From the NCBI GenBank assembly GCA_031291235.1, contig JARLJL010000022.1, positions 458,355-482,354 on the forward strand: 24,000 nt of DNA, in the 5' to 3' direction. The notes below the pieces were generated by a model. That model did not search any database and was not told the origin of the DNA. It saw only the letters and a list, made by a program, of their open reading frames with translations. This stretch comes from Sulfuriferula sp. GTDB lineage: Bacteria; Pseudomonadota; Gammaproteobacteria; Burkholderiales; Sulfuriferulaceae. Shown in pieces: positions 12,844 through 17,551 of the stretch. The translations under genes and the position numbers were made by a program. Positions within the stretch are counted from its first letter, which is position 1, and each line of letters opens with the position of its first letter.

Positions 12844-12922
12844 GCCGTAACGTGAAGCTAAGGGGCGCGCCAAAGGCGCGTCCCAGCGACCAAAGGGAGC
12901 GAACTTGAGCGTAGGGTTAGCC
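12844..12922 (-). repeat. attC of cassette 6 (distal end of array)
   Basis: gccgtaac-gtgaa-gctaagg-ggcgcgccaaaggcgcgtcc...cttgagc-gtagg-gttagcc. It resembles the attC at 13411-13470 but carries a 19-nt insertion and degenerate cores. The TAA stop of the cassette ORF lies inside the GTTA core. Confidence 0.7.
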
Positions 12923-13405
12923 CACACGTTTTCGGACCCCAGCATAGGAAAATATGGGTACGCAGACAAGCACCAATAATAAACCAGCCAAGCGTTCGCC
13001 AAGATACTCACTTGCATTTCCCCAAACATGAACACTAGGTTCACTGGGAATATATGTGACAAGCCCTGAATCTCCCGCCTTTATTGCCTCGCACGTTGGA
13101 TTGCCATATCCATCAGAGCCTAGCTCATTAACGATAGTGGTGCCGACCGAGAACTGATAGCGAATATGGTGCTTTTCACCTTGCCGACAATCAACTTCGA
13201 CTACTCGTGCGGGAGCACTAATGCCTGAAGTTGTTAACCAGAGGTAAGGCAGCATGTTGCCAAGAAACATGGCGAACACAGATGCCGTAGTGACGATTGC
13301 AATTGCGAGGGGTGAATGTTGCCGATAGTACCAATACAACCCTAACGCCACGCCAACAGAGCCCAAGGAAAATAGGAGAATCTGAAATACGTTCAGGATG
13401 TTCAT
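12917..13405 (-). CDS. DUF3592-like membrane protein (cassette 6)
   Basis: 162 aa with N-terminal TM helices, a beta-rich segment (ARVVEVDCRQGEKHHIRYQFSVGTT...) and a C-terminal TM helix, which is the DUF3592 layout. It fills the cassette 12851-13416. Confidence 0.65.
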   Translation of the reverse strand: MNILNVFQILLFSLGSVGVALGLYWYYRQHSPLAIAIVTTASVFAMFLGNMLPYLWLTTSGISAPARVVEVDCRQGEKHHIRYQFSVGTTIVNELGSDGYGNPTCEAIKAGDSGLVTYIPSEPSVHVWGNASEYLGERLAGLLLVLVCVPIFSYAGVRKRVG

Positions 13406-13410
13406 GTGGG

Positions 13411-13470
13411 GGCTAACGTGGAGCTAAGGGGCGCCGCTTCGCGGCGTCCCGCTTGAGCGTAGGGTTAGGC
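13411..13470 (-). repeat. attC of cassette 5
   Basis: GGCTAAC-gtgga-GCTAAG-gggcgccgcttcgcggcgtccc-gCTTGAGC-gtagg-GTTAGGC. This is the canonical R/L box structure with one extrahelical base in the L box pair. Confidence 0.85.
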
Positions 13471-13488
13471 AGACGTTGATGCATACGA

Positions 13489-13782
13489 TTACTCTCCATA
13501 TGTATTGAGAGCCAAGAATACACCAATGTAAAGCGAAACGAACGTAGCCAAACCTGCGCAGAATACCCACAACCCCTCTCGATATAAAGCCGAAGCTAAC
13601 CATTTTGTTTTTAGAAGAACCAAGAGATATGCAGCAAACGCAAGAATCGAAGAAACACCAAGCCAGAGAGCCATCAAAAAACCAGAAGGCAAGTTGAGGC
13701 CAAAGAATTTAGTGCCATATGCCGTAAAGAGGAAAGCGACATGAATGCAGGCGACCAAAACGATTTGCGCAATCAACTTCAT
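13489..13782 (-). CDS. Hypothetical polytopic membrane protein (97 aa, cassette 5)
   Basis: ORF with 3-4 hydrophobic helices that fills the cassette 13417-13796. Its ATG lies 8 nt after the GTTAGGC core. I recognise no family. Confidence 0.55.
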   Translation of the reverse strand: MKLIAQIVLVACIHVAFLFTAYGTKFFGLNLPSGFLMALWLGVSSILAFAAYLLVLLKTKWLASALYREGLWVFCAGLATFVSLYIGVFLALNTYGE

Positions 13783-13790
13783 GGGGGTAT

Positions 13791-13857
13791 GCCTAACGTT
13801 TGAATTGAGCGGCCTGCGCGGCTTTTCGCGCAGGTCCGCTCGAATGATGGGTTGGGC
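13791..13857 (-). repeat. attC of cassette 4
   Basis: GCCTAAC ... cctgcgcggcttttcgcgcagg ... GTTGGGC. The central hairpin is shared with the attC sites at 14194, 15062 and 15913. Confidence 0.85.
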
Positions 13858-13890
13858 ACATGGTCTCTCAGTTTCCTTTTCGCTTGGCTT

Positions 13891-14118
13891 TCACAAGCTC
13901 ATCAGCGGGCTAAGCCCGGAAGGGAGGTGGCGCTCCCAAAACACGATGACGTGGTTGATGATACGTTTTGCATATGCCATTACCTCACAAACTGCCTTCT
14001 TGACCATAAGCAAACCCTCCTTTCGAGTTGAAGATAGACGAGCAATTACTTCCGTGATTACAAATCCTAGCCAGAAGCTGGTAGGGCCAATAACTACATG
14101 AATAAAGCCTGCCATCAT
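13891..14118 (-). CDS. Possible small membrane protein (75 aa, cassette 4)
   Basis: This is the only minus-strand ORF fully inside cassette 13797-14199 besides a TTG-started 62-aa ORF. It has an N-terminal hydrophobic helix. An internal AAGGAGG-N8-ATG could instead give a 38-aa product. Support is weak. Confidence 0.3.
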   Translation of the reverse strand: MMAGFIHVVIGPTSFWLGFVITEVIARLSSTRKEGLLMVKKAVCEVMAYAKRIINHVIVFWERHLPSGLSPLMSL

Positions 14119-14193
14119 CAGTCTCAGGAGGCCACCTCTGAGAGACGCACGATTGTGCGTTTCGGCATTTCAAAACGGTACGGCGAGTAATGT

Positions 14194-14259
14194 GCCCAAC
14201 GTGGAGCTAACCCGCCTGCGCGGCTTTTTGCGCAGGTCGGGTTGAGCGCAGGGTTAGGC
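14194..14259 (-). repeat. attC of cassette 3
   Basis: GCCCAAC-gtgga-gctaac-ccgcctgcgcggctttttgcgcaggtcgg-gttgagc-gcagg-GTTAGGC. Confidence 0.85.
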
Positions 14260-14286
14260 GAATGTGGCTCCGAAAGTAAGGCACTT

Positions 14287-15027
14287 TTAACCAACCAGTT
14301 TGTGTTGGAAGGCGTAATGTCTTCCTTTGTCGGTTAGGTAAAGGCTCTTAATAATGTCTTGCTTAACTAGCCCAAGAGCTACGGCTTCTTTGATAGTGAT
14401 ATCAAGCAGAAGCCTTGACGCTTTCGAATTGCGAACGATTTTATCGTAGGAGATGTAGTCCAATGTGTGCGACTCAAAGTCTCGAATTATCAGTGTCATC
14501 AATTCGAGAACAGCGTCTGCGGATTTTTCGGCTGGTGTTTCTTGTGGCGGCGTGAAAGGATTATTCCCAATTGGGGGCTTTTTGAAAAGCGGAGAGCCCA
14601 CCAAAGTTCGAACTAGTTCATCGAATGAGAATTCTGCTTCATCATCCTTGGAAAAATCGACGAATAGCTTCGTTTTGAGAAAAGTGGGTACGTTTCTTGT
14701 GCCAGCTTGCCTGATGATCGGAATGACCTTATTGGAGTCAATTGACTTTAACAGGTCTGAAGTGACGATCATTTTTTCATATCCAACGCCACCGACTCCT
14801 GAATTTGCCTTTTCAACATACTTGTCAGTGCAAATCATTAGAACTCTGTTGGCAGCTGCCAAATTTTGCTCCATAAAGTGTGTCAAGTCGTCTCCAGGCT
14901 GGAGTTCCCACTGATCTAGGATTGCATCGATACCAGAGTTTCTAAGCCTGATGGCGAAGTCCATCACCCATTTTTTGTGGACTTGCGAGTCGTGTGAATA
15001 CGAAATAAAAACTCGTGGGATTGTCAT
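14287..15027 (-). CDS. TIR/SEFIR-like (STIR superfamily) domain protein with a C-terminal winged-helix-like region (cassette 3)
   Basis: 246 aa. The N-terminal 150 aa or so read RVFISYSHDSQVHKKWVMDFAIRLRNSGIDAILDQWELQPGDDL..FMEQNL..ANRVLMICTDKYVEKANSGVGGVGYE, the pattern of bacterial TIR/SEFIR domains. A Pro-rich linker follows, then about 85 aa ending ..LVKQD..SLYLTDKGRHYA, which looks like a wHTH wing. Confidence 0.8.
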   Translation of the reverse strand: MTIPRVFISYSHDSQVHKKWVMDFAIRLRNSGIDAILDQWELQPGDDLTHFMEQNLAAANRVLMICTDKYVEKANSGVGGVGYEKMIVTSDLLKSIDSNKVIPIIRQAGTRNVPTFLKTKLFVDFSKDDEAEFSFDELVRTLVGSPLFKKPPIGNNPFTPPQETPAEKSADAVLELMTLIIRDFESHTLDYISYDKIVRNSKASRLLLDITIKEAVALGLVKQDIIKSLYLTDKGRHYAFQHKLVG

Positions 15028-15061
15028 GTGTAAGTACTTTCAGAAACCTGTATCTGAGATT

Positions 15062-15129
15062 TCCTAACGACTGAATTCACCGGACCTGCGCGGCTTTTCG
15101 CGCAGGTCCGGTGGAATGAGGGGTTAGTC
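15062..15129 (-). repeat. attC of cassette 2
   Basis: TCCTAAC ... ggacctgcgcggcttttcgcgcaggtcc ... GTTAGTC. The TAA stop of the two-TM ORF lies inside the GTTA core. Confidence 0.85.
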
Positions 15130-15633
15130 TTTTGGAGAAGGACCGTCATTGACGCCACCGGCTTTATCGGCCATGGAAGCGGGTTCATCCCCCCCTTCAT
15201 CCCCCCCTTCATCCCCCCCTTCATCCTCCCCTTCATCCTCCTCTTCAAGCGACAGAACATCAGGTGGGATGCGTTGACGGATTTTCTTGCACAACTCCTT
15301 AACCTCGCTTCTGGCTCGCCACCACGCAATCATGAGGTACGCGCCAAGCAAGATTCCTACCACGGCAATAATGATGAACGTAGTTTCGATAGACCGGTTT
15401 GCAAAGGTGGCTGTTTCAAGAGACGCGATTGCTGAGAATGCGAGCGATAGAAGAAAAATGGCGAAGTTCAGCTGTAGGTCTGCTGGAGTTCCTTTTTCCA
15501 GCGCGTCAAGCTCAGTGTCCTTGATCTCATAGAGATCGACCGATTCGACTCTACCCCTTCGCACACGAAGGGGTGTGCTGTCGTCAAGTTGTTTGTTGTT
15601 CTGGGCCATGGCTATAGGTTCTTCTTCAGCCAT
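15124..15633 (-). CDS. Two-TM membrane protein with acidic (DEGG)n tail (cassette 2, distal gene)
   Basis: 169 aa from ATG 15633, or 161 aa from ATG 15609. It has a charged N-terminus and two hydrophobic helices (LQLNFAIFLLSLAFSAIASL, TTFIIIAVVGILLGAYLMIAWW). A basic helix follows, then the tail EEEDEGEDEGGDEGGDEGGDE. I recognise no family. Confidence 0.65.
   Translation of the reverse strand: MAEEEPIAMAQNNKQLDDSTPLRVRRGRVESVDLYEIKDTELDALEKGTPADLQLNFAIFLLSLAFSAIASLETATFANRSIETTFIIIAVVGILLGAYLMIAWWRARSEVKELCKKIRQRIPPDVLSLEEEDEGEDEGGDEGGDEGGDEPASMADKAGGVNDGPSPKD
15184..15243. repeat. 12-bp tandem repeat (5 units, 3 perfect) containing C7/G7 tracts
   Basis: ttcatccccccc occurs three times (15184-15219), followed by ttcatcctcccc and ttcatcctcctc. 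This encodes the (GGDE)n acidic tail of the two-TM ORF. Confidence 0.9.
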
Positions 15634-15881
15634 TCGCTATGTTTGGAACTGATAGCACTACGCCACGCTGCTTCAGTCCCGGAGCGGATAACGAACAATC
15701 TATCTCCAGAAGCCAACACCTCTTTTAGGTGGTCGCGAATTTCAGCAGCTTTTTGGTCCGTGACGATCGCCCAACAGGTGTTATTAATCGGACAGTACTT
15801 CGGGTACGTCTTAAGACGCTCCCGTAAGCTCTGCCGAACAGCAAGCTGTTTTGCTTGAAAAGAAACGATGTAACAGGTCAT
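15612..15881 (-). CDS. Hypothetical small soluble protein (89 aa, cassette 2, proximal gene)
   Basis: Clean ORF inside cassette 15068-15918. Its stop is at 15612-15614, overlapping or abutting the start of the two-TM ORF. It opens MTCYIVSF and looks like alternating strands and helices. I recognise no family. Confidence 0.6.
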   Translation of the reverse strand: MTCYIVSFQAKQLAVRQSLRERLKTYPKYCPINNTCWAIVTDQKAAEIRDHLKEVLASGDRLFVIRSGTEAAWRSAISSKHSEWLKKNL

Positions 15882-15912
15882 TGTATAAATGTACCGTGTA
15901 TTTTGTACATAA

Positions 15913-15982
15913 GGCTAACGTGGTGGTAACCGGCGCTGCGCGGCTTTATCGCGCAGCGTCCGTGTTGACCGCAGGGTTAGAC
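15913..15982 (-). repeat. attC of cassette 1
   Basis: GGCTAAC-gtggt-ggtaacc-ggcgctgcgcggctttatcgcgcagcgtcc-gtgttgacc-gcagg-GTTAGAC. Confidence 0.85.
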
Positions 15983-16048
15983 CTCTGGCGGCCGCAAAGA
16001 AAGCGTTGCGCCTGCGCGATGAAGCTAGAGAGCCGATAAGTTTGCGCA

Positions 16049-16348
16049 CTAGCTCTCCTCGGTTCCCGCAACCAAGCGTTCAACCGTAGCCAAGAAGGCA
16101 GGCATTTCACTGAAACTCCCACCAAACCGTTCTCGAACCAAAGGCCCTTGATCCTTCCATTGGCCGGGAGCGCTTTCCACTTGAAGGAGACCGTGCCTCT
16201 CCTTTCCATCCCACACCAGGCGGAATCTCGGACCGCGCCCGGCAAATACGGCATAGGCAGAACCAAACGCCTCGGGGTTCAAGTGTTCTTCCACCAAGGT
16301 TCCACCTGCGCCACGGACAACTTCGCGGAGAGACGAGTACGCGTGCAT
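16049..16348 (-). CDS. Hypothetical protein (99 aa, cassette 1, attI-proximal)
   Basis: ORF starting 5 nt after the attI crossover core. It is visibly more GC-rich than the neighbouring cassettes. I recognise no family. Confidence 0.55.
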   Translation of the reverse strand: MHAYSSLREVVRGAGGTLVEEHLNPEAFGSAYAVFAGRGPRFRLVWDGKERHGLLQVESAPGQWKDQGPLVRERFGGSFSEMPAFLATVERLVAGTEES

Positions 16349-16353
16349 AAGAG

Positions 16354-16411
16354 GTCTAACGTGAAATATACACCGATTCGGTGTATATTAAATTCTCAAA
16401 ATCGGTGTATA
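16354..16411 (-). other. attI region: crossover core GTTAGAC (minus strand) plus three copies of a 10-12-bp box
   Basis: gtctaac (16354-16360) is the boundary of the first cassette. A perfect 25-bp palindrome AATATACACCGA-t-TCGGTGTATATT lies at 16365-16389. A third copy, TCGGTGTATA, lies at 16402-16411. Confidence 0.65.
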
Positions 16412-16564: not shown

Positions 16565-17551
16565 TTGGAAAATACAAACACACCTATTTTTACCTCTCCA
16601 AAACTACTCGATCAGGTACGCAATCTCATTAGGGTCAAGCATTACAGCATCCGTACAGAAACGCAATATGTGCAGTGGATAAAACGTTACATTTTATTTC
16701 ATAACAAGCGCCACCCGAGCGAAATGGGTGCAACGGAAGTTGCATCATTTTTGACTCATCTGGCGGTATCGGGGCATGTCTCATCCTCTACCCAGAACCA
16801 GGCGTTGTCTGCGATACTGTTTCTATATCGGGATGTACTGGGGGTGGACCTTCCCTGGTTAAAAGACGTGGTACGAGCCAAACAGCCGCAGCGTTTACCG
16901 GTGGTATTGACGCGTACAGAAGTGAGGGCAATTCTCGCCCGGATAAAAGGTGCACATGGTTTGATGGCACATTTACTATACGGTACTGGCATGCGTTTAA
17001 TGGAATGTGTGCGTCTGCGAGTGAAAGATGTGGATTTTGAACGCCTTGAAATTTTAATCCGCGATGGCAAGGGAGCGAAAGACCGCATCACCATGCTGCC
17101 GGATTCTATTGCGCCCCTACTGCAGGCGCATTTGGTACAACGGCGTGTATTATTTGACGACGATGCGCGCATGGGTAAGGTTTCAGTTTATTTGCCCGAT
17201 GCACTGGCGGTCAAATATCCTAACGCACCTCAAGAATGGGGCTGGCAATACATTTTTCCATCCGGCAGCTTTTCTGTTGATCCGCGTAGCGGCGTGGAAC
17301 GGCGACACCATATTGATGAGAAACTATTACAACGCGCGATGAAAAAAGCCGTGCAGGAAACTGGCATACCCAAGCCGGCAACGCCCCATACTTTGCGCCA
17401 CTCATTTGCTACACATCTACTGGAATCAGGTTACGATATTCGCACCATACAAGAGCTCCTGGGACATGCAGACGTGGCTACGACAATGATTTACACGCAT
17501 GTACTGAACAAAGGCGGGCGCGGTGTGACTAGCCCGCTGGATCAATTATAA
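16565..17551 (+). CDS. intI: Integron integrase IntI (tyrosine recombinase)
   Basis: 328 aa, collinear with IntI1 by eye (LLDQVR..IR..HYS.RTE..YV.WI; [19 protein letters not shown]; GKGAKDR; [12 protein letters not shown]; LLGH; IYTHV). It carries the IntI-specific insertion [21 protein letters not shown]. All catalytic R-K-H-R-H-Y positions are present. It has a TTG start with no clear SD. Confidence 0.95.

Follow-up and report, generated by a model that had tools for sequence, protein, structure and literature searches.

The stretch of DNA analysed here (the window: 24,000 nucleotides of Sulfuriferula sp. contig JARLJL010000022.1) carries an integron whose second cassette from attI encodes two proteins on the minus strand, a small soluble protein, ORF-A, and a protein with two transmembrane (TM) helices, ORF-B (ORF, open reading frame). 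We suggest, with a probability of about 0.4, that ORF-B is a membrane-damaging effector and that ORF-A holds it in check, so that the cassette would carry a self-sufficient pair of genes of the toxin-antitoxin or abortive-infection type. We infer this toxin-antitoxin or defence character from anatomy and context: the layout of the two proteins, their translational coupling, their mobility, their neighbourhoods, the exchange of one partner and the survival of A (as we call the ORF-A family) where B (the ORF-B family) has been lost all point to a module of this type. The cassette and its boundaries are as follows.

15068-15918, minus strand: cassette 2 from attI, carrying ORF-A and ORF-B; recognised by G/TT crossovers, attC pattern, hairpin folds and boundaries that recur elsewhere.
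15612-15881, minus strand: ORF-A, 89 amino acids (aa), basic, with a predicted Cas2/GhoS-type ferredoxin fold (β1-α1-β2-β3-α2-β4-α3); from the ORF list, AlphaFold2 and Foldseek.
15124-15609, minus strand: ORF-B, two-TM membrane protein, 161 aa from the ATG at 15609; from the ORF list, with the start inferred from homologues.
15064-15127, minus strand: attC of the ORF-A/ORF-B cassette; pattern match, fold z = -8.0, R'' core including the TAA stop codon of ORF-B.
15915-15980, minus strand: attC of the preceding cassette, forming the 5' boundary of the ORF-A/ORF-B cassette; pattern match, fold z = -5.4.

GTTAG cores on the minus strand at 15919-15915 and 15068-15064 put the G/TT crossovers at 15919/15918 and 15068/15067, and the cassette therefore spans 15068-15918; the crossovers read by the earlier note from the same sequence (15067/15068 and 15918/15919) are thus recovered at identical positions. 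The window contains four instances of the arrangement CTAAC-N(40-70)-GTTAG where 0.24 would be expected, and both attC sites flanking cassette 2 fold into long bulged hairpins. The cassette accordingly shows what defines an integron cassette, namely an attC with R'' and R' cores, a hairpin, and a place in an array adjoining intI and attI.

The junction of the two genes reads TAG-CC-ATG. In 18 of 20 related loci, the ATG of B overlaps the stop codon of A (as ATGA or TGATG) or lies no more than 8 nucleotides (nt) away from it, and in the remaining two (L006 and L018) B starts about 22 nt upstream, within A. Given this conserved start/stop overlap, A and B are translationally coupled, which bears out the initial description of one cassette with two coupled genes on the same strand. 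That description had left the start of ORF-B at either 15633 or 15609. The ATG at 15633, which would give a protein of 169 aa (15124-15633), has no conserved counterpart among the 20 loci, and homologues of ORF-B are mostly 137-158 aa long; the ATG at 15609 is, on this comparison, the more likely start.

The two genes belong together well beyond this integron. B-anchored scans of GTDB species genomes and IMG/VR yielded 18 loci, in 16 of which A lies directly upstream of B on the same strand; the exceptions are L020, which has another ORF upstream, and L023, where a remnant of B that has lost its N-terminus lies beside an integrase. Conversely, A-anchored scans yielded 83 loci, and a six-frame hidden Markov model (HMM) search placed B immediately downstream in about 95% of those with room downstream (exceptions: L029/L090, L069, L050 at a contig edge, and L088). 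A and B overlap by up to 11 nt or lie up to 27 nt apart, and pairwise distances within A and within B are correlated (Mantel r = 0.50, p ≤ 0.001; 80 distinct pairs). The earlier note had proposed a test for co-occurrence of the homologues, and the outcome is strongly positive. The pair spans Betaproteobacteria, Gammaproteobacteria, Alphaproteobacteria, Verrucomicrobiota, Nitrospira, Acidobacteriota and Bacteroidales, with hosts including Rhodocyclaceae (94% identity), Aromatoleum (75%), Bordetella, Stenotrophomonas, Novosphingobium, Prosthecobacter, Chthoniobacter, Nitrospira, Acidobacteriota and Bacteroidales, and the family is very widespread in environmental metagenomes. Gene callers often overlook ORF-A, which is uncalled, for example, in Novosphingobium sp. 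KACC 22771 and in L006. At L020 (4113-4872), in an Acidobacteriaceae metagenome-assembled genome, an intact B is overlapped upstream by an unrelated 104-aa ORF without a Pfam match, which may be a third type of partner or a spurious ORF.

At three loci, B is lost or damaged. It is missing at L029, frameshifted after about 20 codons at L069 (100-503), and at L088 (2922-3350) reduced by a deletion that removes both TM helices and joins an intact A to the C-terminal tail of B. A is intact in all three, which argues from sequence that A is not toxic on its own.

The pair is also mobile as a unit. In a survey of 88 distinct pairs, boundaries were sought with GTTAG/CTAAC cores, since the textbook patterns GTTRRRY/RYYYAAC miss GTTAGCC sites. 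GTTAG, usually as GTTAGCC, lies within 70 nt upstream of the A start codon in 26 of 86 pairs, most often at 32-52 nt; the stop codon of B lies within GGCTAAC, in a single fixed register, in 22 of 79; and both features are present in 16 of 77. About a quarter of the distinct pairs thus have integron cassette boundaries and, as these recur on both sides, the whole pair is a recurrent single integron cassette. In the window, the last codon of ORF-B and its TAA (15124-15130) occupy the same register in the R'' core GGCTAAC as in 22 other loci (e.g. L008, L009, L018 and L031). Because the stop codon is fixed inside GGCTAAC, the C-terminal glycine of the ORF-B family is probably conserved on account of the recombination site and not for the function of the protein. 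Co-directional coupling, conservation as a pair and mobility together form a generic criterion for two-gene toxin-antitoxin or abortive-infection modules, and all three are found here.

The earlier note had also asked whether homologues sit in integrons or defence islands. They do occur in integrons, in prophages, and beside defence or toxin-antitoxin genes, in the following contexts.

Window: the adjoining cassette encodes a bSEFIR/TIR defence protein (PADLOC, E = 1.7e-79).
L005, Novosphingobium: P2-like prophage, with the pair between the S24 repressor and tail gene D (gpD).
L024: phage contig, with an HTH regulator on one side of the pair and adaptor, portal and head genes on the other.
L025: pair beside a large methyltransferase-like gene.
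L001: pair beside an element with a 692-aa DNA methylase.
L118: restriction-modification methyltransferase-endonuclease and a PD-T7-4-like DUF4145 gene directly upstream of the pair.
L120: DUF4238 neighbour.
L122: ScoMcrA-like HNH, UPF0175 and HTH_37 neighbours.

Distant relatives of B have a different partner. They are preceded by a DUF1883 protein of 85-90 aa in place of ORF-A, again overlapping or no more than 11 nt away, as at the following loci.

L112, 2735-3381: DUF1883 and B.
L114, 2735-3561: DUF1883 and B.
L117, 55-941: DUF1883 and B.
L124, 5001-5658: DUF1883 and B.

At L112/L113 this pair lies next to Phd/ParE. In Polystyrenella longa, the gene overlapping the DUF1883 gene downstream belongs to the B family (E = 3e-34), and the island around them includes ArdC, Toprim, replication protein, HNH_5 and CHAT genes. 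One divergent B retains a divergent ORF-A with a Cas2-like TYD motif. As DUF1883 replaces ORF-A upstream of distant B proteins, B is the constant element and its small soluble upstream partner is exchangeable; toxin-antitoxin and defence modules typically exchange partners around an effector that stays the same. Stand-alone DUF1883 proteins form more than 1000 clusters in a single search, and the DUF1883 pairing may be the larger branch of the B family. The domain architectures catalogued for bacterial TIR proteins include DUF1883 (PMC9153377), and the domain itself has been called PPC-like, with ligand binding as its predicted role (bioRxiv 10.1101/2025.08.20.671228). At another locus, L111 (1139-1501), a divergent B has no upstream partner ORF and lies among DNA phosphorothioation genes, beside an Aminotran_5 cysteine desulfurase-like gene, dndB and a dndC-like gene with a PAPS_reduct domain.

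ORF-B itself is laid out as follows (residues counted from the ATG at 15609; all on the minus strand; AF2, AlphaFold2; pLDDT, predicted local distance difference test score).

Residues about 1-44: cytoplasmic N-terminal region, net charge -3.
15490-15570, residues 14-40: conserved motif LRVRRGRVESVDLYEIKDxELDxLEKG, from a 41-sequence alignment.
15409-15477, residues 45-67: TM helix 1, net charge -1, from hydropathy (AF2 helix 42-66, pLDDT > 90).
Between the TM helices: connecting loop of 8 residues, net charge 0, predicted periplasmic from hydropathy.
15319-15384, residues 76-97: TM helix 2, net charge 0, from hydropathy (AF2 helix 72-113).
15259-15318, residues 98-117: basic juxtamembrane helix with a conserved RIRxRIPP, net charge +4, from alignments.
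Residues 118-161: variable acidic tail, net charge -15 in the window copy.
15184-15247: 12-nt tandem repeat in 5.3 copies, encoding the (DEGG)n of the tail, from Tandem Repeats Finder.

The two TM helices, basic stretch and acidic tail had been recognised before; from the ATG at 15609, however, the charged N-terminal region comprises about 44 residues rather than the 55 then supposed. Nor does the acidic repeat hold as a feature of the family: its unit (TTCATCCCCCCC, 96% matches) is a local tandem expansion inside the coding region of the window copy, missing from close homologues, including the 88%-identical P0071. It looks like a recent slippage expansion that lengthened the acidic tail, and its copy number may vary between strains.

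Conservation is concentrated at the other end. The near-invariant N-terminal motif holds 14 of the 26 invariant columns in the ORF-B alignment, and the conserved N-terminal region includes the segment RGRVESVDLYEI. Although highly conserved, residues 18-27 are modelled by AlphaFold2 with pLDDT below 50, behaviour that would suit a strand which becomes ordered only against a partner or within an oligomer. A profile search against 1.84 billion cluster representatives returned 957 clusters (50% identity) at E ≤ 1e-3 and 605 at E ≤ 1e-10: ORF-B stands for a large, unnamed family. ORF-B has no match in Pfam, NCBIfam, PADLOC (PADLOC-DB v2.0.0, 0 matches) or the sequences of the PDB. All weak matches of the Pfam scan (MciZ, DUF6085, TM7S3 and others) fell below cut-off and were dropped as noise. 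In tblastn searches of 50,697 phage records and 72,556 plasmids, no match to ORF-B was found.

ORF-A could be placed more closely. An AlphaFold2 model built from a 35-sequence alignment (mean pLDDT 94.3) has the order β1-α1-β2-β3-α2-β4 followed by a C-terminal helix. Foldseek against the PDB retrieved, in order, Cas2 SSO8090 (3exc), GhoS (2llz), Cas2 TT1823 and PF1117, and next Cas2-like BPSL1038 (7vxr, TM-score 0.78) and dozens more Cas2 chains, with TM-scores of 0.55-0.78 to Cas2 structures. The E-values are only about 1e-3 (GhoS, at rank 2, E = 2e-3), yet the matches are very consistent, and the identity to GhoS (21%) is the highest among the top ten. Against BFVD, the model gave nothing significant.

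Sequence comparisons lead in the same direction. ORF-A has no significant match in Pfam, NCBIfam or PADLOC (best, PADLOC Cas2b, E = 0.007), and its family profile found nothing meaningful among PDB chain sequences; neither it nor ORF-B thus belongs to a characterised family in these three collections, as the earlier note had supposed. ORF-A does match PHROG 1090 (phrog_1090, function unassigned there; E = 1.7e-13), and tblastn found proteins with 34-38% identity in 24 Staphylococcus temperate-phage records, mostly annotated as Cas2 or CRISPR-associated. Two such relatives that were tested exceed the gathering score of Pfam CRISPR_Cas2 (25.8 and 35.9 bits vs 23.8), and the ORF-A profile aligns with a Staphylococcus-phage Cas2-like protein at 98.7% probability (hhalign). 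Within the ORF-A family, 8 of 35 members match CRISPR_Cas2 (PF09827) at E ≤ 1 (best 2.9e-5), while the window ORF-A has no match at that threshold. Against Escherichia coli GhoS, hhalign aligns the family over 64 columns (27% identity, pairwise E = 1e-4, probability 57%), a suggestive likeness that falls short of proof, and none of the 35 members matches the Pfam GhoS model at E ≤ 1. Judged from the model and these comparisons, ORF-A appears to be a divergent branch of the Cas2/GhoS-fold superfamily, and the weak impression of a Cas2- or GhoS-like ferredoxin fold, gained by eye, is upheld.

ORF-A is nevertheless not a CRISPR Cas2, because no cas1 gene or CRISPR array accompanies it, either in the window, where the larger ORFs were scanned, or at about 100 loci; its neighbour is ORF-B. 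The metal-binding aspartate at the end of β1 in Cas2/VapD proteins is Gln9 in the window ORF-A (YIVSFQ); most relatives carry Glu there, and a few carry Asp. This replacement favours a binding role over a nuclease role. The protein is basic, with a net charge of +7 (family mean +3.7).

In phages phiSP44-1 (L026, 3001-3264) and StB20-like (L027, 3001-3264), the Cas2-like gene, annotated Cas2, stands on the strand opposite to the surrounding early genes, with no cas1, CRISPR array or membrane partner. By sequence, these proteins share the superfamily branch of ORF-A (PHROG 1090). The Staphylococcus-phage Cas2-like genes face small convergent genes, whose products were considered as membrane partners and ruled out: they are soluble, and those Cas2-like genes are therefore solo.

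Upstream of ORF-A, the cassette offers little room for regulation.

15882-15918, minus strand: leader of 37 nt from the crossover to the ORF-A ATG, without an obvious Shine-Dalgarno sequence.
15890-15909, minus strand: imperfect palindrome TGTAC-N10-GTACA in the leader.

The palindrome is partly common to the closest relatives, L008 and L009 (CACGGTACATTT), and could be an operator or RNA element, or simply reflect shared ancestry. A promoter scan gave one sigma-70-like match, which was rejected as the ORF-A promoter, its -10 hexamer overlapping the ATG. Expression of the cassette probably depends on read-through from Pc.

On the mechanism that we favour, ORF-A would be made just before ORF-B from the same mRNA and would keep it harmless. 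ORF-B, the effector, would insert into the inner membrane as an N-in/C-in helical hairpin and, once released, would oligomerise and damage or depolarise the membrane, leading to growth arrest or death. ORF-A would most likely bind the invariant cytoplasmic N-terminal strand-helix segment of B in a type II-like neutralisation, the partner capping this segment and blocking oligomerisation; less likely, it would cleave the B mRNA as GhoS does. Protein-level neutralisation is favoured over such cleavage, since two unrelated β-sheet proteins serve in one position, the nuclease aspartate is not conserved, and the B segment resembles an orphan strand-helix. The module moves as one unit in integrons, prophages and genomic islands, and its gain would lie in stabilisation of the element, in aborted phage infection, or in both.

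Several observations weigh against a toxin held in check by its partner. Searches of Pfam, NCBIfam and PADLOC link neither A nor B by homology to a proven toxin, antitoxin or defence protein, and the ORF-B model is a plain helical hairpin without an informative structural match (Foldseek against the PDB: generic helical hairpins only, E ≥ 0.5). Integron toxin-antitoxin cassettes usually have promoters of their own; here, the promoter scan revealed no convincing one, and the leader is just 37 nt long. Moreover, B is intact without a recognisable partner at L020 and L111, so B may not be lethal alone. Finally, the evidence from defence contexts is anecdotal, coming from about 10 loci.

Some of these points would suit a pair that protects without killing the host, in which B is a superinfection-exclusion or injection-blocking inner-membrane protein and A its chaperone or regulator. 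Many prophage morons and some integron defence cassettes act by superinfection exclusion or injection blocking, and the pair does occur in prophages and phage contigs at moron-like positions; the partnerless B genes at L020 and L111 also speak for it, and constitutive expression from Pc, as for an ordinary cassette, would fit the lack of an evident promoter. A preprint reports TM helices in roughly one in three of the integron defence cassettes identified by experiment, and one of these, Deva, blocks genome injection (bioRxiv 10.1101/2024.07.02.601719). We nonetheless regard this explanation as unlikely: it accounts neither for a near-obligate, translationally coupled soluble partner nor for the swap with DUF1883, and it sits poorly with a protein whose most conserved part is cytoplasmic and whose periplasmic loop has only about 8 residues.

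The pair might also serve an accessory membrane function outside conflict, spread by mobile elements, for instance as a stress-responsive membrane protein with a small cytoplasmic regulator. The want of homology to proven toxins or defence proteins would then be natural, as would the abundance of the family in environmental metagenomes. We doubt this reading too, as it has to contend with the consistent location of the module on integrons, prophages and islands beside restriction, toxin-antitoxin and defence genes, and with its partner-swapping architecture.

A strict type V (GhoST-like) system, with A a sequence-specific endoribonuclease that destroys the B part of the bicistronic mRNA and whose loss would allow B to be translated and the membrane to be damaged, is decidedly improbable. 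The structural and sequence similarity of ORF-A to GhoS described above, a gene order as in ghoS-ghoT, and a basic A compatible with RNA binding speak for it. However, the hhalign probability is only 57%, Pfam GhoS is matched by no family member at E ≤ 1, B is no relative of GhoT and has about three times its length, and tight translational coupling would be odd if A destroyed the B message. In addition, the A position can be taken by the unrelated DUF1883 β-sandwich, described as PPC-like and ligand-binding, not as a nuclease (bioRxiv 10.1101/2025.08.20.671228), which argues for a role at the protein level. That A should be the toxin, a VapD/Cas2-like nuclease with B as antitoxin or immunity protein, or else a genuine CRISPR adaptation Cas2, is suggested by its Cas2/VapD fold, by the toxin role of VapD-like proteins in type II systems (PMC11980593) and by phage relatives annotated as Cas2 that pass the Pfam Cas2 threshold, but hardly deserves credence when A is intact without B at L029, L069 and L088 and solo in Staphylococcus phages, its metal-binding Asp is Gln in the window, cas1 and CRISPR arrays are missing beside it in the window and at about 100 loci, and no membrane antitoxin is among the reported VapD partners (PMC11980593).

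The integron that carries the module is complete, small and chromosomal, comprising intI, attI and five cassettes (12848-16360 and 16565-17551). The attI crossover, read from the sequence, lies near 16360/16361; the cassettes extend leftwards on the minus strand, with the last attC at about 12848-12922, and past it follow a two-component system and further chromosomal genes.

16565-17551, plus strand: intI integron integrase, with Pfam Phage_integrase and Phage_int_SAM_4.
16049-16348: 99-aa ORF of cassette 1, without a Pfam match.
About 14258-15067: cassette 3, adjoining cassette 2, with a 246-aa TIR/SEFIR protein (14287-15027, minus strand).
13469-14206, minus strand: cassette 4, with ORFs at 13891-14118 (75 aa) and 13489-13782 (97 aa), neither with a Pfam match.
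12917-13405: 162-aa ORF of cassette 5, without a Pfam match.

Cassette 4 may be another two-gene cassette. The match of the cassette 3 protein to PADLOC bSEFIR covers only profile positions 35-241 of 412, and the protein also matches Pfam TIR_2 and SEFIR; by these matches, its gene is a short bSEFIR-type defence gene borne as an integron cassette.

In a wider, tentative reading, B would be an unnamed superfamily of membrane effectors, filling at least 957 clusters at 50% identity and marked by the invariant cytoplasmic segment RGRVxSVxLYEIxDxELxxLExG. Each member would be controlled by an exchangeable small upstream protein, either a Cas2/GhoS fold or a DUF1883 β-sandwich, and together they would constitute a new toxin-antitoxin or abortive-infection family that integrons, prophages and islands have carried into many phyla. 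Where the partner is a Cas2 fold, it might be a true relative of GhoS, giving a second, far more widespread type V family. Most integron cassettes are without an assigned function, and recent screens have found that many are phage-defence genes; the pair is a compact (about 0.85 kb), widely disseminated candidate, with both proteins outside Pfam, NCBIfam and PADLOC. If B is indeed a toxin controlled by a Cas2/GhoS fold, the module would add to a type V class that so far has one member, or else establish a new mode of membrane-toxin neutralisation, add a further case of Cas2-fold proteins recruited outside CRISPR, and give a function to stand-alone DUF1883 proteins paired with the same effector. 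It is present in cultured Novosphingobium sp. KACC 22771 and Stenotrophomonas geniculata ATCC 19374, and in its DUF1883 type in Polystyrenella longa.

Literature on Cas2-like proteins with TM partners, GhoS homologues, DUF1883 and integron defence yielded no account of a Cas2-fold and two-TM pair, nor of DUF1883 with a two-TM protein, and the pairing of DUF1883 with B appears to be undescribed. Two preprints on integron defence, as far as consulted (10.1101/2024.07.02.601719 and 10.64898/2026.03.17.712381), do not mention a Cas2-fold and two-TM cassette; the first does report that many integron cassettes without an assigned function proved to be defence genes. Like the phage-defence cassettes of integrons (BRiCs) and the toxin-antitoxin cassettes of sedentary chromosomal integrons, the module is a bona fide array cassette, here beside a bSEFIR gene, although a promoter of its own is not evident.

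Among known systems, DUF1883-TIR fusions have DUF1883 in common with the distant B modules, the partner in the window being a Cas2 fold instead. With the Cas2/VapD superfamily, to which CRISPR adaptation Cas2, VapD toxins and VapW antitoxins belong, ORF-A shares the β-α-β-β-α-β fold and C-terminal helix, as well as homology to phage proteins that pass CRISPR_Cas2; Cas2 differs in its catalytic Asp (Gln in ORF-A) and its association with cas1 and a CRISPR array, and ORF-A lacks a Cas2 HMM match. The reported partners of VapD are VapX, VapY and VapW, with no membrane protein among them (PMC11980593), whereas the partner of ORF-A is a membrane protein. SLATT-type two-TM effectors of CBASS and retron systems and class II holins resemble ORF-B in their N-in/C-in hairpin with charged cytoplasmic ends and in an association with mobile elements and defence genes. 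Membership of SLATT, to which the earlier note had likened ORF-B, is not borne out: the match to NCBIfam SLATT_6 is confined to the TM region and reaches 12.7 bits (E = 0.077) where the cut-off is 100, and no Pfam SLATT model matches. The annotated neighbourhoods of the pair that were examined contain no SMODS, SLOG or other nucleotide-signalling or reverse-transcriptase partner, and the pair is not in a lysis cassette.

The closest parallel is GhoS/GhoT of E. coli (type V), in which, as in this cassette, a gene for a Cas2-like ferredoxin-fold protein of about 90-100 aa is followed on the same strand by a two-TM gene. GhoS is the second-best structural match of ORF-A and weakly similar in profile, but ORF-A has no Pfam GhoS match. 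A familial link between ORF-B and GhoT, the other likeness drawn at the outset, has to be given up (hhalign probability 0.1%, no Pfam match): GhoT has 57 aa, about a third of the 161 aa of ORF-B, and lacks the conserved cytoplasmic N-terminal domain of about 44 aa and the acidic tail. Furthermore, ghoS and ghoT are 27 nt apart, whereas ORF-A and ORF-B are translationally coupled. Thus, although by sequence ORF-B is neither a GhoT nor a SLATT protein, the module would, by analogy, be most like GhoS/GhoT in its working.

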